35,306 nt of DNA from a virus. Taxonomy: Duplodnaviria > Heunggongvirae > Uroviricota > Caudoviricetes. Positions 14,795 to 32,576 of this stretch are shown piece after piece. Positions within the stretch are counted from its first letter, which is position 1. Every line of letters starts with the position of its first letter. The notes beneath the pieces are model-generated. The model was not told the origin of the DNA. It saw only the letters and a program-made list of their open reading frames with translations, and searched no databases. Location of the stretch: IMG/VR virus record IMGVR_UViG_2541046997_000001, positions 1 to 35,306 of that record; one strand, written 5' to 3'. The translations under genes were made by a program, and so were the position numbers.

Positions 14795-14826
14795 TAAAAG
14801 AGCCAAGGCACATGACCTCGACTCTA
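14795..14826 (-). terminator. Intrinsic terminator just upstream of the Dit gene
   Basis: Minus-strand RNA reads AGAGUCGAGG-ucaugug-CCUUGGCUCU-UUUAUU. Confidence 0.6.
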
Positions 14827-14851
14827 TTAATCTTATATTTTTAAATATAAA

Positions 14852-14880
14852 TTGACAAAATGTAGTTTAATTGATATATT
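14852..14880 (+). promoter_or_regulatory. SigA-type promoter of moron 1
   Basis: TTGACA-17 nt-TATATT with TG at the extended -10 position. Confidence 0.75.
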
Positions 14881-14990
14881 ATGAATTGGCATTATCTAAT
14901 ACGGTAAGGACGGTTGTCTTCCACCAGAGAGCACAAGCTCTGTTCTTATAGAAACCTGTTTAGGAATCTTATGGAAAGGAGGACTTTTAC

Positions 14991-15137
14991 ATGGATTTAG
15001 CATTACAAGATTTATACTATATAGTGGGAATTTTTAGTTTGTCTATAAATATATCATATACGGTATATAAATTTGTAAAAGATAAAAGACATGAAAAAAG
15101 TAACTGTCCTCAGCCTGAGAAACTGAACAGTTACTAA
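14991..15137 (+). CDS. Small membrane peptide (48 aa), type I toxin-like
   Basis: MDLALQDLYYIVGIFSLSINISYTVYKFVKDKRHEKSNCPQPEKLNSY; not in the ORF track. AGGAGG RBS. The 5' leader pairs with the 3' trailer, and an antisense terminator overlaps the 3' end. Confidence 0.65.
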   Translation: MDLALQDLYYIVGIFSLSINISYTVYKFVKDKRHEKSNCPQPEKLNSY

Positions 15138-15605
15138 TTTCGTGTAACACATAGATTTCAGGGCAACCGTCATTGCTAACGATAATGCCATTTTATGTAC
15201 ATAAAAGTACACTAATTACAATATATAGTATTAATCGTTTTCACGATTCTAAATTCTGTAACCGCCATGAGTAAGCGGCTATTTATGCGTTAATAAAATT
15301 TTCATTTATTAGCCTTAAATGTCCAATAAAAGGCTCAACCGTCTATAGGATTCTGTTCTTTCCAACTAAACAAATTATATGATTAATCATTAAATGATTT
15401 ACTTCTTTTACTTACGATTATATTAGATTATTTTCTAATTGTAAATACATAGGCACTAAAAAGATGAAATAAAAAGTTATATTTGTATAAAATGCTATTT
15501 CTTCTTTTTAATGTCTATTTTTTTTGTTATATATTTTATGCAAATTTATTTATGGTTATGCTGACAGCCAGATTCGAATCAATCATTCTCTGACTGTCAG
15601 TAGTA

Positions 15606-17007
15606 TTACAGTTTCTTATGCATTCCTAATCTATGTGCTTCCTGTGTAAAATATTTTGTTACCTCTTGAATAACTTTTTTAATGCCTGGATATGTATCTT
15701 TATCAATACTTCCTTCGACATTAATTAAGTTATCATAGTGCTGATTAATAGTAGTTCCTTTGCCAGTATCTTCTCTGACATTTCTTCGGAGAGATGCTTC
15801 CATAATCGCATTTTTATTTTCAGCAAGACTAAAGAGATTGTCTGTTAGCTTCTTAGGAACAATAGCATCACCATATTCAAATGTTGCATAATTGTCACTT
15901 CCACGCTTTATCCTAAGTTCTTTACCAACTTCATCAATTCTTGCAAGTTCAATTGCATTTGTGATTTTCTTCGTTCCTTTAGCATAACCACTAATCTGAT
16001 CTTGTCTTACCCAACCAAGGTCACTGTAAAATCCAGGAGTTGATTGAGTACCTAGATGGATAGGGTATGGACTGTTTGGATTCATATATGTGATATATAA
16101 TTCCTCACCAAGATGTTGATTTCCAACCGGGTTTGTTCCGTATGAGTCATTGAAATACATTCCACTATTGAATCTAACTTTATCACCGACTCTTGGAATA
16201 CCATCTCCTCCACCAGTATTATTTTGCTGAGGCGGTTGTGGTTTAGGTGGTTCTGGTTTCTTTGTGACTGTAACTCCGACTGATACGCTTAATCCACTTC
16301 CATCAGTAGTAGATGCTGTTACTTGAGCAGCTCCTGGTTTGATAGCACGGATTGTTCCGCCACTAACAGTAGCAACTCGTGTATTAGAAGATTTCCAAGA
16401 AAGCTTTTTATTTTTTGCATCAGTAGGTCGTATACTTGCAGTAATAGAAGTAGACTGACCTTCTTCTAACGATACTGACGATTTATTAAGTTTCAATTCG
16501 GCAACAGGTCGATTGGATGTATTCGGAGCCTGTCCAATAATTCCTTCGATTCTATCATTGTTACTTTGTGCTGATCCACTTTGGATAGCGCCAGTGTTTA
16601 CATTTGTAAAATCATTTGGTTTATAATTAGGGGCAGTAGTAATACTTCCGTGTACTTGATTTTGTGCACCTCCCGCTGTTCCAAGGTTTCCAATGTTAGA
16701 ATTAAAATCACCACTTGGTTTAAATCCTGTGCCGGCAATAATACTTTGAATTTTGTCATAGGCTTGCTGATAATTATTAACAACATTTCCCAACATCTGA
16801 GAAATAACTTGTTCTTGTTTTTCGGCATTGTATGTGACTTCATTTAAAGTATCTTCAAGCGACTGATTTAAGTCCTCAGAAAGTCCTTCATATCCGTCTT
16901 TTCTAACTTCATACTCATGATCTTTCTGTGTCTGTTGCAATTGATCCTGAGCCTCTGCTAATTGAGCTTCTAATCTCTTTTTCTCTGCTTTTGCTGCTTC
17001 ATTATTT
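15606..17007 (-). CDS. Tape measure protein, exon 4 (C-terminal), with an Ig-like (Big_2) domain, Pro-rich linker and SH3-like segment
   Basis: The frame stays open upstream of the ORF call to 17007. Splicing gives ...AALDGV|NNEAAKAEKKRLEAQ. Big_2 motif 'LKLNKSSVSLEEGQS..LSWKSSNTRVATV'. Confidence 0.85.
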
Positions 17008-17146
17008 CATTACCTTCACATAGTTCGCTACACTATGCAGTTCTTTTATGAACTTCTCTGGGATTTCCCCAGAAGTTGAGACTATACCTTCTATCTAATT
17101 CTCTCACACAAAAATAGAGCAGATAATATTACCATCCGCCCTACAT

Positions 17147-17695
17147 TTAATCTGTTAATTCTAATACATATAATTCGCATTTTTCATTATAAGAATCACC
17201 GACAGCCTTTTGTGTTTCGTCATTCGCTTTTTTAAATCCTAATGAATTATAGAATCGTATTCCTTGTTCATTGTCTGATTCTACAAATACAATTATGCCA
17301 TATATTGCAATAATCTTACTAACTTCTTTTATTTTAGGTATGATATAGTCATAAAATAAAACCTTACCTAAACCATTCCCTTGAAAATCAAAATCTACAG
17401 CAATTCTGGCAATTTCCACAACGGGTAGTGCCATATACTCATTTGTATATACATCAAACGTATGAATTGCATTGGCTTTGATTGTATAAAAGGCAAGTAT
17501 ACATGTTTTTTCATTATCCATTAAGATATATGTGTGACCTTGTTTCTCCTCGGAATAATCAAATGCATCATCTGATAAAAAAGTATTTAAAGGATTATCT
17601 GCGCCACAGCAAAAATCACCCACTAACATAAAGTGTTTTAATGATTCTTTATCTAAAAATTCCTCTTTATACTGTAAAAGTTCCGTATTACCCAT
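17147..17695 (-). CDS. GNAT-family acetyltransferase, putative toxin, inside intron C
   Basis: Motifs 'FCCG..PLNTFL' and 'LPVVEIARIAVDFDFQGNGLGKVL..GIRFYNSLGF'. The ATG at 17695 overlaps the end of the upstream small ORF. Confidence 0.85.
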   Translation of the reverse strand: MGNTELLQYKEEFLDKESLKHFMLVGDFCCGADNPLNTFLSDDAFDYSEEKQGHTYILMDNEKTCILAFYTIKANAIHTFDVYTNEYMALPVVEIARIAVDFDFQGNGLGKVLFYDYIIPKIKEVSKIIAIYGIIVFVESDNEQGIRFYNSLGFKKANDETQKAVGDSYNEKCELYVLELTD

Positions 17696-17891
17696 TACGT
17701 TTTCCTTTAAGTATTTCGGAAATTTTAGTATTAGTTTTTTTTCGTTGTTCATCTGTAAATGGCTTCAACTTACTACTTTTAAAATCTTGAATAATTTTTG
17801 TAGCAGCATCACCTTTTAATAATGGTACAACCGCCATTGAAACTGCCATATGCTTTGCCTCCTCTTTTGTATCAGGTCGATTATCGTTCAT
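17688..17891 (-). CDS. Small protein coupled to the GNAT, putative antitoxin
   Basis: 67 aa with GGAGG RBS; a second possible start at MAVSMAVV. Overlaps the GNAT start. Confidence 0.65.
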   Translation of the reverse strand: MNDNRPDTKEEAKHMAVSMAVVPLLKGDAATKIIQDFKSSKLKPFTDEQRKKTNTKISEILKGKRNG

Positions 17892-18336
17892 TTTATAATT
17901 CCTCCAATAAAAGAATTATAAAATATCTAACCTTATAAATAAGTCGAATCAAAATAGTTTCTATATTTATATTACAATATAATAAGAGAGTTTACAATAT
18001 TATGCAATACTAAAATTAATTTTTAAATTAGATAGTCTATATTTTTCGAGTTACCAATCGCTTGTAACCCTATGCCTACATATTATAATATATAGGACTT
18101 ACCAGTCGTTGAGCGTCTTCCATATCATAATTATATATGACTTAGGATGTTCGTTGCGTCTGGGTGACTTGCACACCCGGTTATCCCTAACCTATCTGTT
18201 TTTTATGGTTTCTATCCGTAGACTGTTGAGTTATAAACTCGCACCGCATTCACGTTTACCGTTTCCAGTTCCGTTGTAGCAAGATAGGGTTGTGGGGACT
18301 TTCCCGCTATTAAATAGAAGTCGCGCAAATAACTTC

Positions 18337-20132
18337 ACGCCATCTAAAGCAGCAATTTGTGCTTTTAACACATTAATGTCTTTTGTCTGTTTCTTAAGAT
18401 TACGAGAATAATCATCGTTCTTTTTTTTGATATCAAGCAGTTTGTCATACTTTTCGATTGATTTCTGAACCATATCATTTTCTGCTTCTAACTGCTTACG
18501 ATATAAGTCAACAATTTCATTCTTGTAATCTTCAACAACACCAACAGAATCCCTAATAGAATCTAGGAAATCCTTTTGTTGTTCTTTATATTCACTTGTT
18601 GAAATGTTTCCGTTCTTTAAATCTTCATCAAGTTTCTTTAATGCCTCATTGTAGTTTTTGATCTGCTGTTTTGCAGCATTCATACCTTGAGATATAAGTG
18701 CGAGATTAGTAATGCCTTCAATGGTTAATCCGCCACTTTGTCCAACAAATGCATCTGAATGAAGCATACTTCTAAAATCATCGGTTTCTGTGATCAAGTC
18801 TTTTAAGGCTTCTTGTCCTTCAAAGAATGGTTCCCATCTGACTTCCCAGATTTTATTTTTGAGTTCTTCAATATTTTCACTTGCATTGTAAATCTCATCG
18901 TCAAGTTTAGCAATTTCATCTGCAATTTCCTGATACCGCTTAGAACCAACATCATACAATCCTTGTTCTTTTACCAGTTCTTGTCTTTTGTTAAAGTTTG
19001 CCTGAATTAAAGCATTGGCATTGTCAAGTTGTTTCTTGAGATCAGCTTCACTGACTTTATCTCCTTTGGCTTCTGTGAGACTTGTTCCATTTTCTAATCT
19101 CTGTGCAGTACGATCAAGCATATCAATGGTATGTTGTAATCGTGTAAGCTTCAGATTTCGTAATTCGTCTTCAAGTTCCACTAAACCGATTTGTGCATCA
19201 ATAGCAGATTCTTTCAACTCATTAAGTTTTGCCTGTGCTTCATACCATTCCTTAGATCCTTGGGACATGTATCCTTGCGACATAAGTTTAGATATTTCTG
19301 CTTCGTAATCCTTAATTTGCTGTTGTGTACTTTCTGCCAATTCTTGCTGATTTTTAATTGACTCCTTAATAGAAGATTCCTGTTCTTTACCATAAGCAGA
19401 ATGACCAAGTTCTTCCCAAAGTTCACGCTGTTTCTCAAGATAGCCGTTGGCTGTATCTTGCTGATTATTCATCATTTCCCAATATTCTTCAACATTGTCA
19501 AGAGCCTGTTGAACTAATTCATCCTGTTTTTCAAGGAGTTCATCGTACTGGGAATTACAGTCTTCCAATTTATCATAGTAATCTTGATAAATTTGAATCA
19601 GTTTTTTCGTTTCTTCGTCATATCCAGAAATATCAAATGAGCCATTTTTGATTTGATTATAGATCAGTGGATCAAGTCCCATCTGAGATTCTAAACCTGT
19701 AAGATGATCACGATATTTATTGATAGCAGTTGCAGTATTAGAAAGATATTCTTGATTCTTTGCTAAAGCTTCGTACATCTTAATCTGTTTGTCTGGAAGT
19801 TTAGCAATACGTTCCATTTGACTCATCAGATGGTCAAACTGGCGTTCCATTGCCTTAAATACACGTTCAATCCAGTCAATCTGATCAGAAAGTGATTCGG
19901 ATAATTTTTCAGCCGCTTCGGATGTATCTGTTGCTGCTTTTGAAAGATTATCTGCAGCATTGTTTACAGAAGAAGAGGTGTTGTTATATGATCCTCCTCC
20001 TGACAAATTTCCACTACCAGTATTACCTGTTGTCCAGCTTCCAGAAGAAAATGCAGTTCCATTGGAAAGAGCATGTCCCCGACCTCCGCCAGATGTTACC
20101 TTTCCATTTGCAAATAATTCCGCTGTTTGTTT
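18337..20132 (-). CDS. Tape measure protein, exon 3
   Basis: Open frame from 20132 (KQTAELFANG...) through the helical 'DWIERVFKAMERQ' region to AALDG. Confidence 0.88.
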
Positions 20133-21594
20133 CGTTTTATTTTTTATAATTCGCTACATTATAAAGAGTATAAAAATACTCCTCACATTTTCATGTGAGA
20201 CTAGACTATATCTTTATGTAATTAGTTATTTTATTGTGTAAAATATGTATCAAGTATTTTGTCTATATATTTATAATTACGGTATGTAATTTCAATTAAT
20301 TTTATATCATTCTTAATACAATAATTTTTTTTGATTTTATCATGATTTTTTCGTATAATAAAATCTTCATATCCTCCAAAATATTTAATTGGACTAAAAT
20401 GTTGTAATCCTTGATATTCTATACAAATATTGTGATCTGGTAAATAAAAATCAAATGGAAGTGAAAGCTTGTCTTTACAATTATCAAAACGATGTTCTTG
20501 ATTGTAATTAATATTAAGTTTTGATAAATATTTTCGTATGTTATATTCTCCCAAACTTTCTTTTCTACTACATTTACGACAACATGCATTTTCATGTCTT
20601 GTAAATTGAAACAAGGAAGTAGTGTATGGTTTGTTACATTTTGGACACACAACTATTAGATTATTTACTTCCCATCCTTTGTATTCATTTTTATTTAATA
20701 ACTTACCGCCAAAAGCTGCAATTCGTTCTTCTACTTCATTTGGAGACAACATTAAATTTTTACTATTTTCTTCATTTTGACATTTTGAACATCCGTGTTG
20801 TGATACTAACGCATAAATTTTTGTTTCAAATACACCATGTTTCTTACATTCATATTTAACAATACTATCACTATTTTTAATTTCATCTTTTTGTGTTAAT
20901 AAGGTATATCCTTTTTTATTACAAAAATCTAATGCCCTAGTATATAATGAAAGTTGACGTTCTTTTAAGTTATATTCAGAAGTTTTTCTTTGTCTACATT
21001 TCTTGCAAGAATATTTATCGTATTTATATTTAAAATAATCTCTCCATTCAACTTTTACAATTTTCCCACAATAATCACATTTAACATTTACTTTTAAATG
21101 TGAGCCACTAGGTAAATCTTCTGGTTTTACAAACAAAGATTCTCTCATCTTTGTAAATACATATCCTTTTGAAATCAAATGTTTTTTATTTGAACAAGAC
21201 CATTTTGACTCTATTAATTGATTTTCTACTAATATTTTTTCACCTTCTTGTTTATATATTTTTTTTACACAATAAAAATCACGCAAAACTGCGTGATAAA
21301 AATAACTATAAATAATTTACATATTTACCTTTTCGGACTGCCAATAACTTGCACTCCTACTCCCTTATGGGATAGTCGTTGAACCTTATCCTGTTCGGAT
21401 CTTGGCTGCTGATTGCCCATTAAAAAAGAGCAGGGGATTTAACCTCGCTCTCATACAAATAATTTTTTCTGTTTTCACAACCTTCACGTTTGAGTATATT
21501 TCATCTCTACGTTGTGGTTTATTTGTCTTTAGGGTTTTCCAGCAATTAGATAAATTTTTTCATACATATCACTATGTAAGACCACTATAAATTT
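20133..21594 (-). ncRNA. Group I intron B (1462 nt, IA-like with P7.1/P7.2) in TMP
   Basis: P1 ACCAU/GUGGU with U.G. P element AAUUGCUGGAAA, Q element AAUCAGCAG, R element GUUCAACGACUA, S element AAGAUAUAGUC. P3 AUUUAUCU/AGGUAAAU. Terminal G at 20133. Splicing gives in-frame DIVFNH|KQTAELF. Confidence 0.95.
20231..21286 (-). CDS. Intron-encoded putative homing endonuclease: CxxC zinc repeats plus a Vsr/DUF559-like nuclease domain
   Basis: Lies in the P8 loop of intron B. Several CxxC pairs. C-terminal 'ESLGE..LPFDFYLPDHNICIEYQGLQHF..DKIKKNYC'. Start codon uncertain. Confidence 0.8.
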   Translation of the reverse strand: MRDFYCVKKIYKQEGEKILVENQLIESKWSCSNKKHLISKGYVFTKMRESLFVKPEDLPSGSHLKVNVKCDYCGKIVKVEWRDYFKYKYDKYSCKKCRQRKTSEYNLKERQLSLYTRALDFCNKKGYTLLTQKDEIKNSDSIVKYECKKHGVFETKIYALVSQHGCSKCQNEENSKNLMLSPNEVEERIAAFGGKLLNKNEYKGWEVNNLIVVCPKCNKPYTTSLFQFTRHENACCRKCSRKESLGEYNIRKYLSKLNINYNQEHRFDNCKDKLSLPFDFYLPDHNICIEYQGLQHFSPIKYFGGYEDFIIRKNHDKIKKNYCIKNDIKLIEITYRNYKYIDKILDTYFTQ

Positions 21595-24500
21595 ATGGTT
21601 GAAGACAATGTCGCCCTTCTTTAGTGGAACAAATTGTGCTCCGCCTTCGATTAAGTGCCAACGTCCATCTCTAACAATTAACTCATTTCCAAGCTCATTT
21701 ACAAGAGAAGTTTGATTTTTAGAAACGCCCCAGTCACCACTTGCGTTCGCGTTACCAGAGTAGTGATACAAATTAGTAGTCCCATTTGCGTTGGCGGTTC
21801 CATTTGCCCCGGCTCCATCTCCCTTGACATTGTTTGTAACAGAAGTAATATATACAGTTTTACTTTGCACAGAAGAGATAGCAGAAGCAAGAGCTGATAC
21901 ATCCCCCGTTCCAGATGTAGTGGCAGATACAGTTACAGATTTGCTTTGTACAGAATCAATAGCTGCTTTTAATGCTTTTACCAAATCCGTTCCAGTTACA
22001 TTTGCTTTTGCATCAACAGTTTTTCCTTCAAGCGTTCCTAACGAAGCCTTTAATGCTCCGATGAGTTCCAAACCTGTAACATTTGCCATTACAGATACAG
22101 ATTTCGCTTCATTACTCAATCCATTTATGGAAGATTTTATTCCGTCAAGTTCATCTTTTCCAGATACACTTATTGAAACCGCCAATTCTCTATCATCAAG
22201 AGAAGACAGCATGGTTTCTAAAGCAGTAATGTCATCTTTTCCGGCAACGTTCACAGTTATGGTTACATCTTTGTCCTGTATATCTTCAAGATGTAAGTCT
22301 TCTTTTGTTTCAAGCCCAACGGGTATTTTAATCTCGTCAGACATTAATTGAGATGCAATCTCATCAGGACTTAATCCTTCAATATTTAATTCTGCCTTAA
22401 TCTCTGGCGAAATATTTGCAAGCTCAGATTTTGCAGTTTCTACCTTGCTTAATGCTTCATCAAGTTTACTCGTATCGACATTAGGTGTAGATGCAACTAT
22501 ATCTGCATTTGTAACAGCATCATAATAATTCTGGAACAGTTGAACTGCATTTTGTAGTTCCGCACTTGCATTACTTGTATCAACACTTAAAACAGCAGGC
22601 TCATTTAACTCTGCACGTTTCTGAATCAAAGTAGAAAGAACTTGCTGTGCAGATTCTAATTGAGAAGCATCACAATTAATTGAACCATCAGAGTTATATA
22701 AAGAATTAATATACTCTTTTGTTTTTTCAATTTCATTATATATAGAAGAATCTGTCTTAGCATTTACATTAATATCAACTTTCCCACCAGTAGCTTCTTT
22801 AATTGCGTCTGCTGCTAGAGTAGCTTTGGCAATAGCTTCGTCTAAAGTACCTGTTTCTACTGACACAGATGAAGGATTTTCCAGAAGTTTTTTACGTTCT
22901 ATAGCTTCTTCAAGTAATGTATTTAGATTTTCGACTTCTGCACTATCAACACCAAATTTAGTTTCTGACTCATCACGCGCTTTCGTTAATTCTGCGATTC
23001 GAGCATCTAATCCTTCCGCATCTAGCTTAGAGGTATCTACATCTAAATCAATTTCCGGGAAATCAGATCCAGCTTCTTTTAACTGTTGAAGATTGGTTTT
23101 TGCTTTTTCAGCTTGAGCAGATAAGTCAGCTATTTTCTGAGCATAATTAGAATCGCCACTCGTATCTCCAACACGAATAGTATCATCATATTCGGTCATT
23201 GCGCGATATAATGTTTGAACAGCTTCCTTACTAATATTTAACCTTTTTGCAATTTCTTCATCTGCTCCAGTTTGAAATTCAAGAACACCATTTTCTAACT
23301 CTTTTACCCATCCCAATCCTTCATTATCAGAAAGAGTTTTCATATCTGTAACAAAATTGTCAAGACCTTGCTTGGTTCCGGTAAAGTATTTATCAATTAC
23401 AGGGAGAGACGATTCATATGCGGCAACAACTTCTTTCATGGAAGCAGTAGCTAAATCTTGGTTAGAATAGAATTGTGATATAGCTCTAAATTCCTCGGTG
23501 TTATATCGACCTTCTTTATAGAGTTCTTTACCACGCTCACGCATCGTTTCAGAAACTGTACGGAACATATCGCCTTCTTCACCATTAGATTGAGCAGACA
23601 TCCATTTTTGGTAAGCAGAGGTTGCACCATCATAGGCGGCTGATAATTGATTTACTGCTTCAAGCTGGCGACTTAATCCGTCTATAACAAGTTGAGAATT
23701 ATTATATTCAGAAGAACCTTTGTCATAATTATTCTGTTCTGCATATGCTTTATTCAACTGCTCTTGAAGTGATTGTTGTTTTTCTGCAAACTTCCCTTTT
23801 GTTATAGCTTCTTGTTGTGCTTGTAACTGGCGTAAAGCTTCTCTGTTTAGATGAACGCCATTTGCGGTTTTTTCAAATAACGTTGCAGGATCATAACCTT
23901 CCAAATCTTCATATGCGGAGGCTATTGCACCAATATCGCCTTCAAGTTCTCCTGTTTCTTCATTGAGAGAAACACCTAGCCCTTTGCCAGTATAACTATT
24001 TGCTAATACAGCATTTAAAGATTCTACAGAATTAATTTGTGATACAACATCTTTCTGAAAATCAGAAAAACTTTCTTCAAGTTTAGTTAGACCAGTATCT
24101 TGACTAGCAAGTGCTGAAATTTCTTCTCTGAGTGTTTCAACGCTGACACCTGCTTCATTACAGGCAGCAACTAATTCAGGAAACCCCTTGGTAATTTCAT
24201 CAACAGACAATTTGTCTCCACTTCTAAAAGCGTCTACTAATTTCTGTTGCGCTTGAGCAAAATCATTATTTTCCCAAATTTTAGATAATGCTTTAGCTGC
24301 TTTGGCTTGAGGATTTTCCCTGGTATAATCATCAATCACTTTTGTGATATCATTGAATTTCTTTAATTCTTTTGAAGACAATCCTTCTTTAGCAGCACCC
24401 GTTGTTTCATCCATGAAATTCTTTCTAAGATCTTGAAGAGTTTTCATGTTTTCGGAAACAGCGTCTTCATACATTTTCATATCTGACTTAAGAGTTTCTA

Positions 24501-25476
24501 TTTCTCCATCAATTTCAGATTTTCTCTTTTTATCTTTTTTTGAAGTTCCTAAGCCATCACGTTCTTTTAAAAGTTCTTCTCTTGTATCTTTTAACTCATT
24601 TAAAGCTTTAACTTCGTTTTGAGTAGCTGTTAGAATATCTGTTTTTTCATATCCAGTGTTTTCTACTCCTTGTGTAGCATTTGCACCTGCAGCCATTCGA
24701 TCAATCCAGTTATCAGACTCTAATAGTTTCTGTTGAGATGATTTTGTTGTTAAGTCATAAGTTTCTCTTTTGTTTAGAGAATCCATTGCAGAGCCGACAG
24801 CTTCTTTAGCTTCTTTATCTGCAATTTCTTTCTTTAAATCTCTCTGACGTTCTAGTTCAGCATTTTGTAATTTCAGTTGTGAAAGTTCAGATTGCTCTAC
24901 AAGATTTAAAGTTCCTTTAGATTCAAGTTCTGAAATTCTTGTAGATGTTGTTTCTATTTCAGAATTTAAAGATTTTACTTCTGCCATTGTAGAAGCGTAA
25001 GCTGATTGCGCTTCTTTTGCTTCCTCAACAGATCTCTTCATTTCAGTAGCTTTTAGGTACGCTAACAATGCCGCACCACCAATAACAGCACCACCAGCGA
25101 TGTAAGGACCTGCTTTCTTAAATACACTCAACAATCCTTTTCCGGCATTCTTGAATCCTTGCATAGCTTTCTGCCCGGTAGTCATTCCATCGCCAAGACC
25201 GTCTAGTGTTTTCTTAAGTTCACTTACACCTTCGGCTGCATCGCCAGCCCCTTCGAGAATATCACCAAGTTGATCTTTCCAGTGAGTGGCTTTTAATGCA
25301 TCTTTTGCAAAACTTTTTGAAACACCAGAATGTTTAAGAATCTTTTCAACTTCTTCTAAATCTTTTGCATTGTCTAAAACATTTTTAAACTTATCAAACT
25401 TTTTAAAATCCGTTATATCGGATAAACCATTAAACTCATCAAACAGATCGGAATATTCCCCTATTTCTTTTAATGA
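21595..25476 (-). CDS. Tape measure protein, exon 2
   Basis: The frame is open for 97 codons between the proposed splice site and the ATG at 25185 (SLKEIGEYSDLF...), with no ATG/GTG/TTG in that stretch. Helical TMP composition ending 'LVNELGNELIVRDG..KGDIVFNH'. Confidence 0.8.
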
Positions 25477-25481
25477 CTGTG

Positions 25482-25490
25482 TGGTATAAT
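25482..25490 (+). promoter_or_regulatory. Extended -10 promoter for the plus-strand cargo genes
   Basis: TGgTATAAT about 50 nt upstream of the ATG at 25539, which has an AAGGAG RBS. Confidence 0.65.
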
Positions 25491-25538
25491 ATAAAAAATG
25501 TTTCTATCATTTATTATATATTTAAGGAGATGAATTTA

Positions 25539-26021
25539 ATGGCATTATTATGTTGTCATGAATGTAAAAATAAAGTTTCTGATAAAGCTGAGACATGTCC
25601 TCATTGTGGATGTCCAATAGTTATTGATAAAAACAAAGAAAGAAAATATTCTAAAGTGAATGGGATTACTTATGATGTAACCGAACTTGTCGATTTGATT
25701 CTTAATCGTAAAACAATTGATGACGATAATGAAGTAAGTGATATTATAAGGAAGACAATGGATATTTCCCCAGTTAAGTTTACTTTACCTACGGTAGAAC
25801 TTGGGAGAGCGCCGGAAGAAATTAACTGTGAAACATTATCCGACTTCTCAAAAAGACAACGAGTCATCCAAGCATCAAAAATTCATTGTCCAAACTGTAG
25901 GTCAACAGATGTAAAACGCATATCTGCAACCGAGAGAGCAGCATCTGTTATTGGACTTGGGTTGCTTTCCAAGAAGATAAATAAAACATACAAGTGTAAT
26001 AAATGTAAGTATACTTGGTAG
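25539..26021 (+). CDS. Zinc-ribbon protein (N- and C-terminal CxxC pairs), intron A cargo
   Basis: 'MALLCCHECKNKVSDKAETCPHCGCP' and 'CPNCRSTDVKRIS..KTYKCNKCKYTW'. AAGGAG RBS. Confidence 0.8.
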   Translation: MALLCCHECKNKVSDKAETCPHCGCPIVIDKNKERKYSKVNGITYDVTELVDLILNRKTIDDDNEVSDIIRKTMDISPVKFTLPTVELGRAPEEINCETLSDFSKRQRVIQASKIHCPNCRSTDVKRISATERAASVIGLGLLSKKINKTYKCNKCKYTW

Positions 26022-26087
26022 TGGTATAGTATAAATACAATAACTGCAGAATTTTAGTTATAATAATGAAATGAGAGGTAAATATAA

Positions 26088-26618
26088 ATGTTAGTAGTAT
26101 GTCCTGAGTGCAAAAACGAGGTAAGCCAATATGCAGAATCGTGTCCAAACTGTGGATTCCCAATTATTAAATTTATGAAAGATAGCAATTTAACAGATAC
26201 CGAAAAAGTTGAAATTTGTCCTAAATGTGGCAGATTCAGCGAAGGAACACCGTATTATTTAAAATGTGATTATTGTGGAAGTACAATGGCACAAACTGAT
26301 TTAACAATGGACGAATGGATATCCGTATTGATGAAAAAGGATGCTTTTTCTTTTGTCGAAGATATGGCTAATAAATATGGTAATAATCAATTTTCAGAAG
26401 AAATGTTTAATACGCGTATGGGGCACAATCACTCAAACAGTCATACAAGTGAGCAGAAAAAAGAAGAAACTAACATCCCTAAATGTCCCACTTGTGGAAG
26501 TACAAAAATACGTAAAATTTCTGGAACTAAAAGAGCTGCTTCGATACTTGGGTTTGGTATCTTGAGTAATAACATTGGGAAAACATATGAATGTTTAAAT
26601 TGTAAATACAAATGGTAG
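26088..26618 (+). CDS. Zinc-ribbon protein, paralog of 25539..26021
   Basis: 'CPECKNEVSQYAESCPNCGFP' and 'PKCPTCGSTKIRKIS..KTYECLNCKYKW'. GAGG RBS. Confidence 0.85.
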   Translation: MLVVCPECKNEVSQYAESCPNCGFPIIKFMKDSNLTDTEKVEICPKCGRFSEGTPYYLKCDYCGSTMAQTDLTMDEWISVLMKKDAFSFVEDMANKYGNNQFSEEMFNTRMGHNHSNSHTSEQKKEETNIPKCPTCGSTKIRKISGTKRAASILGFGILSNNIGKTYECLNCKYKW

Positions 26619-26622
26619 TAGC

Positions 26623-27321
26623 ATGGTGGAGACAAAATTACGCTGGTTAGAATACTGTAAAGAAATTAAAAACATCCCGCCAATACAAGAGATAAAGCTT
26701 CTTGATAAAAATGATTCATCACACGCAAGATTTAAATCAATAGATTTGTATAATCAAAAATATATCTTATATGTTCAAAAGGAGATATATGAATATACGG
26801 AGGTTTCGACAAGATCTATATTATTTCATGAATTTACTCATCTTGCGGACTCAATAAAATATAGAGATAAAAAATATGAAGTATTCCTTAATATAATGGC
26901 TTCTTACTCAGAATATCATGCAGCATATATCGAAATGATTCAAATTATCAAAAGCTGCAATAGTAAATTAGTAAACAAGGAATCAGAGGTTATTTACAGA
27001 GCCGGCTGTCTTACTTTAGAATCCCTTATGTCTCAATCATACACAGCAGCGATAAAATGTTTTGAAAAAATTGATGGGTCTTTTGGATTACATGAGTTTT
27101 TTTATTATTTAGGATATAGAAAAGCTTTACAAAAATATAATTTGGAATTTGATTTTAATTTCTTGGATTTCAATCCGTTATATATGATTTATATTAAAAA
27201 TATTTCTGATTATGTGGAATCTAATGATATTCCCAAAATGGCTGATGAGCACTCAAAATTATTACACTCTATTGATATGGAGATAGAATCAAATAAAATT
27301 TTGAATCATTTTAATATTTAA
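26623..27321 (+). CDS. HExxH putative zinc metallopeptidase
   Basis: 'ILFHEFTHLAD' followed by 'SEYHA' as a candidate third ligand. Starts 4 nt after the upstream stop. Confidence 0.7.
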   Translation: MVETKLRWLEYCKEIKNIPPIQEIKLLDKNDSSHARFKSIDLYNQKYILYVQKEIYEYTEVSTRSILFHEFTHLADSIKYRDKKYEVFLNIMASYSEYHAAYIEMIQIIKSCNSKLVNKESEVIYRAGCLTLESLMSQSYTAAIKCFEKIDGSFGLHEFFYYLGYRKALQKYNLEFDFNFLDFNPLYMIYIKNISDYVESNDIPKMADEHSKLLHSIDMEIESNKILNHFNI

Positions 27322-27423
27322 AAACTGTTGTTTTCTTATGTTGCTACTTGGCTCTGCCAGACAAAGCTGCAGACATCAATGACAACGACAAAGATCAAGA
27401 GGAGGAGAAGAACAGCGGCTATC

Positions 27424-27594
27424 TTATAACTCCACATTGCCCAAAATTTTTTCTTTAAACTTTTTTATAATTGAATAACATTCAGATTGGTTTACATCAG
27501 TGCCGCAATATAGCGTGTTGATTAAACACTTTACAATATAATTTTCTTTTTCTTCACGCTGTAAATAATTATCAACGAAATTATTGTCAAACAT
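27424..27594 (-). CDS. Small hypothetical protein (56 aa)
   Basis: GAGGTG RBS before MFDNNFVDNY. Lies back-to-back with 27626..28060. Confidence 0.5.
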   Translation of the reverse strand: MFDNNFVDNYLQREEKENYIVKCLINTLYCGTDVNQSECYSIIKKFKEKILGNVEL

Positions 27595-27625
27595 ATTAAC
27601 ACCTCGATTCTGAAAGGAGATTACC

Positions 27626-28060
27626 ATGAAATTAAATCCAGATTGTATTAGAGATGTATTACTCTATTTAGAAGCTGAATTAGAAGTAGACTTGGAAAAA
27701 CAAAATTTTACAAGAATTAGTCTTAAACAGATAAAAGAACATTTTGAAAATATTTATTTTGAAGAAGATATTTGGTATACAGTGTACAATCTTCGTGAAA
27801 TGAGATATATTTCTGGAAACTTGGGTGACGCCGGAAGGAGATTAATGATGTTTTGTGAAATAGACAATATAACTCCATATGGACACCAGTTTTTAAATAC
27901 TATAAGACCAAAGTCTATTTGGGACGCAACAAAATCAGGAGCGTCTAAGATAGGTATAACTTCTCTATCTGCATTAAGCACAATAGCAATGGAAATAACA
28001 AAATCAGTTGTAACGAGAAAAGACGTTATAGATGAAATTGTATCTCTAATAAAATTTTAA
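27626..28060 (+). CDS. DUF2513-like protein
   Basis: 'MKLNPDCIRDVLLYLE..ITPYGHQFLNTIR..IWDATK' is the family pattern. AAGGAG RBS. Confidence 0.8.
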   Translation: MKLNPDCIRDVLLYLEAELEVDLEKQNFTRISLKQIKEHFENIYFEEDIWYTVYNLREMRYISGNLGDAGRRLMMFCEIDNITPYGHQFLNTIRPKSIWDATKSGASKIGITSLSALSTIAMEITKSVVTRKDVIDEIVSLIKF

Positions 28061-28142
28061 CAGCACAAGAAATAATAATATCATTAATACAAAAATCTCG
28101 TTTGAATATCTAATATTTTACCGAGTATTGTTTTCAAGCACA

Positions 28143-28172
28143 AAAATAGAGCAGTAGTAGTTACTGCTCTTG
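28143..28172. terminator. Hairpin terminator between the convergent DUF2513 and type III toxin genes
   Basis: AGAGCAGTA-gtagt-TACTGCTCT with a U-tract on the minus strand. Confidence 0.65.
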
Positions 28173-28655
28173 ATTTATATTTAATTCTTTGTGAAAATAT
28201 TTTAATGTAGACATTCCATACTTTCTTTTAAAATCCATTTTTGGCAAAGTAATTTCATTATTCATGTGCAATACATATTCATCTACATACTTAAGAGAAT
28301 CTTCAACTATTTTTGATATAAATCTTTTTGTCTTCATATATTCATCTCTATCAATCATTGCAGGTTCGGACGAAACAAAGTTATGATTTTTGATAATCAC
28401 TATTTTACTATAGTCAAGTCCTGAATTATGTTTATTTGATCGTTTTGTATTTTGAAATTTAAAAGCATATTTATGATGAATTTCACTTCTATATGGTATA
28501 CAAACGAAATAATCATAATGTGTCTGAATTAATAAACAATTATACCCTCTATTTTTCTTTTTTAACAATTCTGGATATTCTTTTGATGGATAATTATCAT
28601 AAAAGGCTTCTGTTAATTTCAATATCTGAAAATCAAAAATATTTTCTTCTTCCAT
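28161..28655 (-). CDS. tenpN: Type III toxin-antitoxin endoribonuclease toxin, TenpN-like
   Basis: 'RGYNCLLIQTHYDYFVCIPYRSEI..SGLDYSKIVII'. Preceded by a promoter, tandem repeats and a terminator, the canonical type III layout. Confidence 0.85.
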   Translation of the reverse strand: MEEENIFDFQILKLTEAFYDNYPSKEYPELLKKKNRGYNCLLIQTHYDYFVCIPYRSEIHHKYAFKFQNTKRSNKHNSGLDYSKIVIIKNHNFVSSEPAMIDRDEYMKTKRFISKIVEDSLKYVDEYVLHMNNEITLPKMDFKRKYGMSTLKYFHKELNINQEQ

Positions 28656-28669
28656 TATTTCTCCTTAGT

Positions 28670-28695
28670 AAAAAAGAGAGGAATACCCTCTCTTA
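28670..28695 (-). terminator. Terminator between the antitoxin repeats and the toxin gene
   Basis: AAGAGAGG-GUAUU-CCUCUCUU-UUUU. Confidence 0.85.
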
Positions 28696-28702
28696 ATATA
28701 CT

Positions 28703-28863
28703 TCATCACTCGGTTACATTTTATTTTATCGATGTGTCAGAACCGTCACACATCATCATCACTCGGTTACATTTTATTTTATCGATGTGTCAGAACCGTC
28801 ACGCATCATCATCACTCGGTTACATTTTATTTTACCGTCCTGTCAGAACCGTCACAGGACTCA
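28703..28863 (-). ncRNA. tenpI: Type III antitoxin RNA (TenpI-like): three tandem ~53-nt pseudoknot repeats
   Basis: Units start at 28703, 28756 and 28809. Stem GAUGUG/CACAUC (GUCCUG/CAGGAC in one unit). Loop CGGUU pairs the downstream AACCG. Confidence 0.88.
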
Positions 28864-28904
28864 TATGTGATGAATTGAGAAAACACTGTGGTCTTCTTAT
28901 TTAT

Positions 28905-28933
28905 ATTATATCCAACAATCGGAGAAAAGTCTA
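28905..28933 (-). promoter_or_regulatory. Promoter of the type III TA operon
   Basis: TAGACT-17 nt-TATAAT. Confidence 0.75.
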
Positions 28934-29000
28934 CTAAAAATATAGCTAATAAAACAAGATGAATTTATGCAAAATATACAAATAGAGCAGTGGTTAGTAT

Positions 29001-29165
29001 CTATCGTATAATTCCACAAATTTTCTTATCACCAGATAAAACATCTATTGACCAGTTTATAGGAATAATATCTTTTAACGCTTCTTCGGAAGAAACGATT
29101 TTTAATTTTCTTCCGGATAATTTAGAAAAATCTAATCGTCTTTTTTTCTTCTCAACCATATACAT
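29001..29165 (-). CDS. Small hypothetical protein (54 aa)
   Basis: MYMVEKKKRRLDFSKLSGRKLKIVSSEEALKDIIPINWS... AAGGGA RBS. Not in the ORF track. Confidence 0.55.
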   Translation of the reverse strand: MYMVEKKKRRLDFSKLSGRKLKIVSSEEALKDIIPINWSIDVLSGDKKICGIIR

Positions 29166-29185
29166 ATTTGTCCCTTCTATAAAAA

Positions 29186-29773
29186 TTAACTATACACAAT
29201 TTCAATTCTATCAAAGTCTTTCGTGTTTAACACAATAAGCTCTTTCGGATTATTAGAATTGTCGATTATAACATTTGCTTCCTCGTCCAATTTTTGATAC
29301 ATCGTTAACGCAATTATTGGTTCATCTTTGTTTGATTGACCATATTTATATAATCCAAGATATGACTTTCCGTCTTTTAAAAATACTCTTACCCATGTAT
29401 TATCTTTGAAAATATCCATCCAAAAATCGTCATTAGTTGTGCGGTAAATATGTAATTTTAACAAAAGATTATTGAATGCTGTTGAATGGCATAATTCACC
29501 TAAAATTACTCCTAATAACAAACCAATAATTGTGAGTAAAATAATACGCTGGTCTGGTAAAATAATGATCTTGGCTTTCTTCAAAATAAAATCAAATACA
29601 ATACCAAGAATATAGCTTGCAGCAACGCTTTTGATAATTAAATTGTTAAAATTTTTATGATCTACAAAAGATACCCAATAATAAGTGGATAAAAAAATAT
29701 ATCCAGGAATTACAAAAGATAATATGTATGGTATATTATCTATAAGATCAATTATCCAATTTATACTTATCAC
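29186..29773 (-). CDS. Membrane protein, DUF6338-like
   Basis: Three hydrophobic segments, with 'FVIPGYIF' and 'DDFW..WVRVFLKDGKSYLG'. Confidence 0.7.
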   Translation of the reverse strand: MISINWIIDLIDNIPYILSFVIPGYIFLSTYYWVSFVDHKNFNNLIIKSVAASYILGIVFDFILKKAKIIILPDQRIILLTIIGLLLGVILGELCHSTAFNNLLLKLHIYRTTNDDFWMDIFKDNTWVRVFLKDGKSYLGLYKYGQSNKDEPIIALTMYQKLDEEANVIIDNSNNPKELIVLNTKDFDRIEIVYS

Positions 29774-29919
29774 CTCTGATTTTCATTATTGTTTTGAGAT
29801 TCAGATTGTCTTACCGGAGGGGTAGTGTTTTCCGTTGTAGAATTCCTCTGATAACTTGAAATCTCAAAAACGGGATTATTTGTATTTTGGTTTCTTTTTG
29901 TTTCATCTTCTGTTCCCAT
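29770..29919 (-). CDS. Small hydrophilic peptide (49 aa) coupled to the membrane protein
   Basis: AAGGAG RBS. MGTEDETKRNQ...; the TGA overlaps the next GTG (GTGA). Confidence 0.6.
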   Translation of the reverse strand: MGTEDETKRNQNTNNPVFEISSYQRNSTTENTTPPVRQSESQNNNENQR

Positions 29920-29981
29920 ATTTATTCTCCTTTTCTAAACTTATATTTATTATAACTCGTACTAGAATAGAAGAGTAGTCG

Positions 29982-29993
29982 GAACATGTGTTT
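29982..29993. promoter_or_regulatory. LexA (Cheo-box)-like site upstream of the intron A cargo promoter
   Basis: GAAC-ATGT-GTTT, one mismatch to GAAC-N4-GTTC. Minus-strand TATAAT at 29949-29954. Confidence 0.5.
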
Positions 29994-30635
29994 TGTTTTT
30001 GTGTAAATTTTCTCATATCACTGGAACCAAACAGCATTAGAGATTTGCTGCTAGAAAATAATCCGAAGATTATATTGGTTACGGCACTCCAGATTTTGCC
30101 GGAAGTTTTAAAAGCATATATCTATGCCACACATGGTACTGACAGTCTATGTTAAGTCAGATTGCCAGTAACGTATTACTAAAACTTTTCTAAATCGCAA
30201 TACGCACTATGCCTTAAAAGAAGAATAGCATTTATGGCAGTTATTCTCTCCGAGGATGGGTATGTCTCTGGGGATACTATCTGTTAATGACCTTCATTAT
30301 ATACGCCAAAAGAATTAACTCAGATATTGTCCTGCTCGTTGTCCTTTATATTCTTACTTAGATGTCTTAACATTTTCATATTAATATTCATATAAGAACA
30401 AATCATTTATTTGGGTTTCCCTACCTACTGTTATGGGTATGATTTGCAAAATAAGATTTCAAGCATTTACTCCTCTATGGGTCAAAACCATAATAAATAT
30501 ATGGAACTCACCATGCTCCGCCACTTGATATTACAATGCCATAATATTGTAAATCTTATGTCGGCTAGACTCATATATAATATAGGAATATTTTACTTAT
30601 TTTATTATATATGTAACCCTGTGTTTTATAGGTTA

Positions 30636-32576
30636 ATCTAAGTTTTTAAAAAATGCAAAAGCTCCTCCCCCAATTGAAAGCACTCCAAGTGGTGATACTG
30701 CTTTTACCAATCCGTCAAATCCTTTAACTAACTGATTAATTAGTTGAACTGCGGATGTAATTTGTCCTGCATCTGCAAAGTTTGAAATAAATTGTTGCCA
30801 AGAGTTAGAAAGTTGATTTAAGCTTCCTTTCCAGTTATTTGCTGACTTTTCTGCTTCAATGGCTGCACTACCTGATCCTTCAGAATAATCTTTTAGCATT
30901 TTGTCATAATCTTGCTGACCTGAAAGAATGGATGCGAGAACATTGGCATGATGTTTTTGACCGATATTATTTAAAATATCTGCTTTTTCGGTCGATCCGT
31001 CTGGTAAAGCATTATATACATCAGACAATTCTTTTAGTAATTCGATAGGTGTTTTTAAATATTCTGAATCCCCTACCATTTTTGTCATTGAAATCCCAAC
31101 ATTATCTAAAGTGCTTACAACTTTATCGTTGGAAGTATTTGTTAAGTTGACAAATAAGGCTTTTAATGCGGTTCCAATTTCGTTCCCCGATTTTTTTGTT
31201 CTCGAGACAGCTGTGCCGACCAAAGCGGATAATTCGTTTACAGAAACACCTGTTTGCGCCGCCATAGAACCTGCCTGAGTCGTAGCTTCTGCAAGATCTG
31301 TCATTGAAACGCTGTTCCTGTTACTTATCATATTTTGTCCGTCAAGTACATCGTTCAATTTCTGAGCAGAGCCTGCATATTCGTAAGCAGCATTAGTAGC
31401 CAGTAGATAACTATTAGCCGTGTCAGCATTCATATCACCGGCAGCTTGTGCCAACACTGACACATTTGCCATATCAACTCCCTGCTGTCCATAAAATCCG
31501 CTTCGGCTCATTTCTGTAACACCTTGTAAATAATCGGTTACAGTTTTACCATAATTACTTGCATATCCATAAGCATCTTGCCTTAACTGTTTTAGAGAAG
31601 AAGATGATAAATCAGATGTTTTAGAAATTTCAGTAAGAATGTCATCAACTTGTTTAAGCCGTTCAATTGATTGTGATATTGAGTCAATACCTCTTTCAAT
31701 CACGCCGTATGTAGTTGCAAACTGTGCGATTTGCTTAAAACCCCTACCCAACTCATTGAGTACAGATCGACCGGTGACTCCTTCGGCTTCTGCACGAGCT
31801 TTGACAAGAGCGACTTGTTTATTTAAATCATTTAATTGCCATTTACTAGTCGCCTCTTGTTGTAATTTTGCTAGTTGTTGCAATTCCTGACGGTACGCTT
31901 TTGTAAGCTTTGTATTTTTTTCTACAAATGAAATAGTTTTTTGACTTGCAATCAGACCTTCATTATGTTTTAATAATCCGCTTTGTGAATTCGCTGCAAT
32001 CTTAGTTTCGTTATTACATTTTTCAATTGCTTTCTGAAGCCTATTGTAATCTTCAATAACGTCACTAATATTGCTGTTACTTTTTAAATTAAAACTATCA
32101 TCAAAATTACCTTTGAGTTTCTCTGACAGATTATTTACATTTTTTAAAGATGACTCTAAATTTTTAAATTCACTACCATCTAAGCTATATTCAAGATTTT
32201 TAATTTGCTTACCTAAATTAGAAACGTCCAAATCTAATTTGCTTGTTGATAATTTTCTTTGAATACTTTGTATAGTTTGTTCTGTTTGTTTGGCGGCATT
32301 TGCCTGTGCTTTACTTAAATCAAAGTCAAAACTAATTTTATTTTTCTTATTACTAACAGACGATTGAAAACTACTTGAAAATTTTCTTCCAGCTGACGAC
32401 CCGGATCGTTCAATGTCCTTTATTAAATTGGGAATGCTAGAAGCATTAAATTTCGCATCATCTATTCCAAGTTTAATGGTGTGTTCTTTTGCCGTTAATT
32501 TGTCCAGCTTCGCCTGTGCAGCATCTAGCGCAGAATCCTGAACTTTTGCAACGACATCAACTTCGTATTGACTCAT
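30636..32576 (-). CDS. Tape measure protein, exon 1 (TP901-family core)
   Basis: GAAAGGAG RBS. 'VDDILTEISKTSD..EMSRSG..GNEIGTALK..GSAAIEAEKSANNWKGSLNQLSNSW'. The TAA that ends the ORF is the first codon of predicted intron A. Confidence 0.92.

Follow-up and report, generated by a model that had tools for sequence, protein, structure and literature searches.

A probable group I intron with a divided P7 helix and exchangeable gene cargo in a prophage tape measure gene

The window analyzed here is a stretch of viral DNA of 35,306 nucleotides (IMG/VR record IMGVR_UViG_2541046997_000001, positions 1 to 35,306), which makes up the initial 35 kb of a provirus record of 164 kb and carries its tail genes on the minus strand. 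Its tape measure protein (TMP) gene is interrupted in frame by an insert of 5159 nt, intron 1. We propose that this insert most likely represents an active, unusually built group I intron, which would splice out with its cargo from the late tail transcript, so that a loop near its 3' end can hold exchangeable accessory and likely anti-phage genes. By every sequence-defined feature that can be tested, intron 1 would be a group I intron, yet it does not fall in with subgroup IA2, the IStrons or the homing introns.

The TMP gene consists of four pieces on the minus strand, and removal of the three inserts restores a single open frame of 3006 codons. Uninterrupted homologues (e.g. P0001, P0002 and P0021) match the pieces in order.

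30636..32576, minus strand: TMP exon 1 (32576-30636), 647 codons, with a PhageMin_Tail domain
25477..30635, minus strand: intron 1, 5159 nt, composed of a group I-type ribozyme arm, the cargo and a short 3' arm ending in G
21595..25476, minus strand: TMP exon 2 (25476-21595), 1294 codons, with its first start codon at codon 98
20133..21594, minus strand: intron 2, an ordinary group I intron (RF00028, 53 bits) with an endonuclease-like open reading frame (ORF) at 21286-20231
18337..20132, minus strand: TMP exon 3 (20132-18337)
17008..18336, minus strand: intron 3, a group I intron with a contiguous P7, holding a GNAT acetyltransferase gene and a small upstream ORF (a toxin-antitoxin-like pair)
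15606..17007, minus strand: TMP exon 4 (17007-15606)

As a preliminary description of this DNA had claimed, exon 1 ends abruptly in FFKNLD before a TAA at 30635, the TMP frame resumes at 25476 with no ATG, GTG or TTG before codon 98, and the junction NLD|SLK is in frame (phase 0). The start-codon-free stretch at the head of exon 2 stays open in all five relatives examined, and the intron-less homologues P0002 and P0013 (52% identical over 93 residues) align across NLD|SLK without a gap at the junction. Among 119 long homologues that reach the end of exon 1, 52 extend over 300 residues beyond it and 66 terminate within 30, with nine distinct C-termini; this suggests that the TMP site is often interrupted. 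The same description knew a single intron in the gene: intron 1 stands, and the other two had been overlooked.

Predicted catalytic core, divided P7 and 3' splice site

The predicted RNA elements of intron 1 are as follows.

30565..30574, minus strand: internal guide sequence, forming P1 through 30570-30565 with the last bases of exon 1 (U.G at the splice site) and P10 through 30574-30571 with the first bases of exon 2
30252..30475, minus strand: core helices P3 (30475-30469 / 30257-30252), P4 (30465-30460 / 30338-30333) and P6 (30332-30330 / 30274-30272)
30261..30268, minus strand: 5' strand of P7, with G264 at 30266
30206..30251, minus strand: P8, J8/7 and the first part of the P7 3' strand (U307-U310 at 30209-30206)
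30137..30205, minus strand: 69-nt insertion of two hairpins inside the P7 3' strand, predicted to form a four-way junction
30135..30136, minus strand: displaced C311 (30136) and C312, completing the guanosine-binding helix
30127..30133, minus strand: 5' strand of the extended P9.0
30114..30127, minus strand: local hairpin that competes with the AU-rich half of a proposed long duplex
25477..25484, minus strand: 3' strand of P9.0 (25484-25478) and the terminal omega-G (25477)
25482..25490, plus strand: extended -10 promoter-like site (TGnTATAAT) that faces the zinc-ribbon genes and overlaps the intron 3' arm

Relatives were collected by pattern scans of viral, genome and metagenome collections, which yielded 91 locus entries, with many contigs represented twice. 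We used 31 loci with both intron ends; L101, which has no exon 2 motif, and loci lacking exon 2 in the stored DNA were dropped, as were three unrelated loci from one pattern scan and seven of 14 genome matches that were due to chance.

P1 with its U.G, P3, P4, P6 and the pairing of guide AUGA with exon UCAU all lie where they had been placed before, and P8 is read from the fold of the window sequence rather than counted across relatives. In a 21-sequence alignment, 96.6% of cells in P1, P3, P4 and P6 are paired, compared with 35-44% for slid partners, and two-sided changes occur at seven of 21 pairs. P3, P4 and P6 occur in order, with 98-100% of cells paired and covariation in each. The splice-site U.G of P1 is present in 21/21 sequences and two other P1 pairs change on both sides, the P1 partner having been picked for best pairing. 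At the other end, intron 1 terminates in G (25477), as had been described, and a G precedes exon 2, its start set by a protein motif, in all 16 distinct guide/exon-2 combinations. Of the 80 cells for the first five bases of the exon, 66 are paired with the guide, compared with 55.9 +/- 2.8 when exons are shuffled (p 0.00035, a generous value because the rows are related and the exon 2 motif was written after P10-guided calls had been seen). Only 3 nt separate the P7 5' strand from the P3 3' strand in 24/24 aligned sequences, which leaves no P7.1/P7.2; therefore, intron 1 is not assigned to subgroup IA2.

P7, the most conserved group I helix, is assumed to be contiguous in standard models. It was missing from the helix set first described and is present in intron 1 in divided form. 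The 3' strand is interrupted between U310 and C311 by two abutting hairpins of 48-69 nt in all. When the sequence after U310 was folded without regard to the P7 5' strand, the two bases after the hairpins were CC with G262 (16 of 17 distinct rows), CG with C262 (5/5, one of these rows being off by one base in the fold) and CU with A262 (3/3). In a MAFFT alignment of 24 rows, with ends cut 12 nt after the predicted C and L092 and L040 set by hand, G264-C311 forms in every sequence in the split register and in none (0/24) in the contiguous register. Pair 262-312 forms in 23 of the 24 (GC 16, CG 4, AU 3) and is broken in L040; since the sequences are related, no more than two independent changes may underlie this three-way covariation. 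The inserted hairpins themselves covary at 6/9 and 5/5 pairs in the same alignment. Two members found later, L115 and L117, obey the same rule, both with C262 and CG after the hairpins, and L117 has a different first hairpin sequence and lacks the extra A of the P7 5' strand.

In the available part of the Tetrahymena ribozyme study (PMC10020454), the guanosine site is built of the layers A263-C262-G312, G-G264-C311, A261-A265-U310 and A306-C266-G309, with P9.0 adjacent. The bases of all four layers are present in the intron 1 family. A degenerate guanosine site, with G or A opposite G264 in the usual register of every sequence, had been considered and was rejected on finding the displaced C311. 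There are no linker bases at any of the three joints; thus, a four-way junction is the simplest model, in which the insert hairpins may stack on each other and the P7 halves would stack as in ordinary introns. The non-contiguous P7 is probably why Rfam misses intron 1. A family with a 48-69 nt insertion between two guanosine-site layers would offer a natural way to test how the active site is constructed.

A separate locus, L113 (675-794), gives a weak model match (35 bits) and resembles the intron 1 family around P3 and J8/7 with a seemingly contiguous P7; it could be a sister lineage without the P7 insertion.

The arms of intron 1 had been proposed to pair as one long duplex, 30133-30117 with 25493-25478. 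The positions are correct and the 7-bp part formed by 30133-30127 and 25484-25478 is retained; the duplex as a single unit of 16-17 nt is not. Its 5' strand begins two bases past C312, exactly where P9.0 is expected. At least six of the seven P9.0 pairs form in seven of ten distinct arm pairs of the window's subfamily, with a U-A to A-U exchange at the pair adjoining the terminal G; as for the exceptions, L080 pairs if slipped by one base, L103 pairs partly and L071 does not. The AU-rich half was rejected, as its plus strand reads as the extended -10 box and its proposed partner lies in a local hairpin that shows compensatory change among relatives. A TGnTATAAT-type box is found in 16 of 22 distinct 3' ends, at a shifting distance of 5-17 nt from the splice site. 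Visual inspection of a few close relatives also pointed to another possible long-range pairing, near 30058-30051 / 25508-25500.

Exchange of cargo between conserved arms

The region between the arms contains nine ORFs, five sense and four antisense, in agreement with the earlier estimate of about nine genes on both strands.

29186..29919, minus strand: 49-aa ORF and 195-aa DUF6338 membrane-like protein
29001..29165, minus strand: 54-aa ORF, common to some relatives
28161..28861, minus strand: putative type III toxin-antitoxin locus, with three 53-nt repeats (28703-28861), a terminator-like hairpin (28694-28674) and a TenpN-family toxin (28655-28161)
28148..28170, both strands: terminator-like hairpin, scored on both strands
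27626..28060, plus strand: DUF2513 protein, antisense
27424..27594, minus strand: 56-aa ORF
26623..27321, plus strand: 232-aa protein with an HExxH motif, antisense, peptidase-like by sequence and an atlas lead only
25539..26618, plus strand: two paralogous zinc-ribbon genes, antisense

Across the 31 loci, intron 1 ranges from 522 to 9021 nt, and four loci are cargo-free. Four close phages keep both arms, with 97-99% identity over the 5' arm, and differ in cargo. Furthermore, the splice-site pairings covary with the exons. Thus, the arms covary while the cargo varies, as the preliminary description had suggested should be checked. The flanking TMP segments of relatives are only 20-69% identical to those of the window, which indicates that intron 1 is old and fixed at one site. 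Each of six genomes or records searched has a single copy. Family-wide searches found members in 2 of 151 genomes with a model and in 4 of 401 with DNA, both counts including the centre genome. In INPHARED, the arm is absent from annotated phages, three weak Aeromonas matches being disregarded. Related loci with organism titles are mostly from Lachnospiraceae and otherwise from other Bacillota, and the named long TMP homologues are from Dorea and Lachnospiraceae; the nearest annotated TMPs are 28-33% identical to that of the window, and many are SPbeta-like.

The cargo of the 31 loci comprises 132 ORFs in 61 families. The scans covered 36 families in Pfam and 35 in NCBIfam and PADLOC, with 25 short or already-scanned families outside. 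In the window, the TenpN toxin matches NF047358 at 162.8 bits (cut-off 90), and the tandem RNA repeats, terminator and TenpN-family toxin together provide all features of a predicted type III toxin-antitoxin (TenpIN) system. Cargo in relatives matches CptN above and a KwaA-like protein below the NCBIfam cut-off, DarT together with a DarG-like partner, and PemK-like proteins, as well as a Spo0A C-terminal domain, antirepressor domains and, in one of 31 loci, TnpB. The claim of accessory or defense genes inside a TMP intron is borne out by these toxin-antitoxin and defense-like genes; that the intron makes a splice-neutral landing pad for them, as the preliminary description proposed, remains an inference. 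The window's own cargo had no PADLOC match at E below 0.001, and atlas searches on the cargo returned only the zinc-ribbon and peptidase-like labels. Neither a homing endonuclease nor a recombinase was found in the window's cargo or in the 36 of 61 cargo families scanned. Intron cargo of this kind is a place to seek new anti-phage systems, as most of the 61 families are unnamed and those named include TenpIN, CptIN, DarTG and Kiwa-like genes.

In 24 of 27 cargo-bearing loci, the last ORF is antisense and belongs to the zinc-ribbon family. Most cargo-bearing loci have one to four paralogous copies of this family, with a conserved C-terminal hydrophobic stretch. In the 9-kb version of the intron at L039 (2500-8900), Kiwa-like and DarTG-like genes adjoin. 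The cargo-free versions of 522-523 nt (L026, L038, L041 and L049) follow an exon 1 that is very short, with some 120 residues in L026, and lie in apparently reduced tail-gene clusters.

Two of the three introns of the window's TMP gene, introns 1 and 3, hold accessory genes. Introns 2 and 3 both have a P7 that is contiguous in sequence. Intron 2 is precisely absent from the relatives L001, L003 and L004. Intron 3 is an ordinary group I intron (RF00028, 18.9 bits) whose GNAT acetyltransferase gene and small ORF sit in the P8 region; a shorter version and an intron-less allele are present among sequencing-run contigs. Elsewhere, relatives L018 and L023 have one or two further interruptions within TMP exon 1, one with an ORF, and in the window about 800 nt without a long ORF (14800-15600) separate TMP from the next tail gene.

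Proposed splicing in cis and its alternatives

We propose the following course of events for intron 1. In the lysogen, the cargo genes would be expressed from their own promoters. During lytic growth, the ribozyme would fold from the first 500 nt of the intron in the late transcript, P9.0 (7 bp here) and P10 would dock the 3' splice site from 4.6 kb away, and the exons would then be joined. Late transcription would pass the cargo terminators often enough for a low-copy TMP. Recombination between the conserved arms would exchange the cargo without the help of a homing endonuclease. T4 sunY provides a precedent for a group I core that acts with a remote 3' junction.

A number of observations weigh against this proposal. 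In addition to the choice of the P1 partner, the generous P10 statistic, the broken pair 262-312 in L040 and the small number of independent changes at that pair, a window-wide Rfam scan gave nothing for intron 1 at E up to 1, with RF00028 matching introns 2 and 3 and missing intron 1. Three of the 16 combinations, those of the L064 group, L080/L095 and L071, have a weak P10 (3/6), and both P10 and P9.0 are missing from L071 at the homologous site. The 12 arm pairs outside the window's subfamily form only one to five of seven P9.0 pairs; introns of 7.5 and 9.0 kb are among these, so long cargo does not require a long P9.0. Most scanned cargo families are without a match, so that a defense-type identity holds for a minority only. 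No spliced exon junction was found in eight sequencing runs, which are almost all DNA-like contigs with patchy cover. Finally, two terminator-like hairpins in the window's cargo face the sense precursor, and the one at 28148-28170 recurs in all five related loci examined, between the sense and antisense cargo blocks.

Two observations from this material stand apart. L071 (13600-13800) joins a window-type 5' arm to a different 3' end, possibly as a recombinant or defective copy, and has a 7-nt P9.0 match about 30 nt upstream of the homologous site with no G after it. A long contig of run X3 that lacks intron 3 and keeps intron 1 was read as a DNA allele and not as splicing.

As the precursor meets these terminator-like hairpins, the exons could be joined only through read-through or trans-splicing. 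In the latter, the same ribozyme would act on two molecules: an exon 1 transcript would end at a cargo terminator, a second transcript would start inside the cargo, and the two would be joined via P9.0 and P10. The 5' arm indeed contains the entire catalytic core, P9.0, G and P10 are all that is required of the 3' arm, lengths up to 9 kb are tolerated, and the sense-strand terminator-like sites, including the recurrent one, have a natural place in such a scheme. A crude terminator scan likewise found 20 sites in 64.2 kb of cargo, compared with three in 51.6 kb of exon 2, a hint only, as the scan missed the window's own two sites; the count of terminator-like hairpins is not above that in shuffles. 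However, sense promoters upstream of the 3' arm are at chance level (35 sites compared with 36.2 in shuffles), 7 + 4 bp are weak for the pairing of two molecules, and the longest introns do without a long P9.0. A virion requires few TMP copies, and a terminator of this kind is also present in the ordinary intron 3, which points to general read-through. Read-through is therefore favored, and we consider trans-splicing unlikely. We are similarly doubtful of the fuller picture of a new group I subclass that has its guanosine-binding helix across a four-way junction, trans-splices a virion gene from two transcripts and encloses in its arms a swappable anti-phage island of unlimited size.

The insert could also be a ribozyme relic, with exons 1 and 2 translated separately or the prophage defective, and the gap an intergenic hotspot. 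The terminal G lies within an in-frame ATG in some distant relatives (L038, L049, the L064 group and L065), and the weak P10 of the L064 group, the absence of junction RNA in the eight mostly DNA-like runs and the missing Rfam match are in line with this view. It is nevertheless highly improbable: the window has no start codon for 97 codons in a stretch that its relatives keep open, L026, L041 and L077 are without an ATG at the exon 2 start, and the catalytic-core bases are invariant and the helices covary across TMPs as divergent as those described above. Excision at the DNA level before late transcription, as in skin-like elements of sporulation genes, which the insert generally resembles in size and multi-gene content, can practically be set aside, given that the scanned cargo holds no recombinase, there is no long terminal direct repeat, conservation tracks RNA pairing with G.U pairs included and no joint across the insert occurs in DNA-type runs. 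Thus, cis-splicing of intron 1 with its cargo accounts best for the data, and the natural 523-nt cargo-free version makes a splicing test simple. As this intron class is missed by Rfam scans, such TMP genes get annotated as broken.

Intron 1 among known introns and hotspots

Group I introns in prophage TMP genes are already known (PMC2504315), and non-endonuclease cargo is known from IStrons and coral ND5-717, as far as the parts available of these sources go. Therefore, the statement in the preliminary description that phage group I introns carry at most a homing endonuclease was too strong: IStrons carry a transposase/TnpB (PMC4227781) and the coral intron most of the mitochondrial genome (PMC6545197). 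In the literature covered, with most subscription journals and supplements outside its scope, we found no report of a phage intron with variable multi-gene cargo or of a P7 interrupted by an insertion, and the available portions of PMC3984707, PMC11878797 and PMC6125680 hold nothing closer to intron 1.

The Bacillus cereus-group prophage introns TMP-IVS1, -IVS2 and -IVS3a/b resemble the present case in that several group I introns share one TMP gene, lie in frame, open with a stop codon and have site-adapted P1/P10 (PMC2504315). They differ in being of IA1/IA2 type with endonuclease genes, and the accessible part of that study does not mention multi-gene cargo or a split P7. IStrons (CdISt1, BcISt1 and CbISt3/4) also combine a Firmicute group I ribozyme with non-endonuclease genes at the 3' end and a distant 3' splice site, some of them in a Clostridium phage. 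According to the available text (PMC4227781), however, they are 1.4-2.6 kb long, contain one insertion sequence (transposase/TnpB), occupy many sites and have P7.1/P7.2. In contrast, intron 1 occupies one TMP site, carries unrelated variable cargo of up to about 8.5 kb, lacks P7.1/P7.2 and has TnpB in a single locus. An IS200/IS605 or IS607 element at the 3' end and many insertion sites would mark an IStron; the window's insert contains no transposase and intron 1 is single-copy in each of the six genomes or records searched.

The coral mitochondrial intron ND5-717 similarly encloses many unrelated genes in 18-19 kb, a size that is handled by non-linear splicing (PMC6545197 and PMC3073962, as far as available). 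It holds a fixed mitochondrial gene set in P8 and is removed by back-splicing, whereas the cargo of intron 1 is variable and sited beyond P7/P9.0. With the canonical group I core (RF00028, and PMC10020454 in the part available), intron 1 shares P1 with its U.G, P3, P4, P6, J8/7, A261, G264-C311, A265-U310, C266-G309, A306, P9.0, P10 and the terminal G; it differs by the 48-69 nt insertion in the P7 3' strand, an extra A in the 5' strand (except in L117) and the lack of an RF00028 match. Prophage defense hotspots and morons likewise hold variable accessory and toxin-antitoxin genes between conserved flanks. However, known hotspots of this kind lie between genes, whereas intron 1 lies inside an essential virion gene and depends on predicted RNA splicing.

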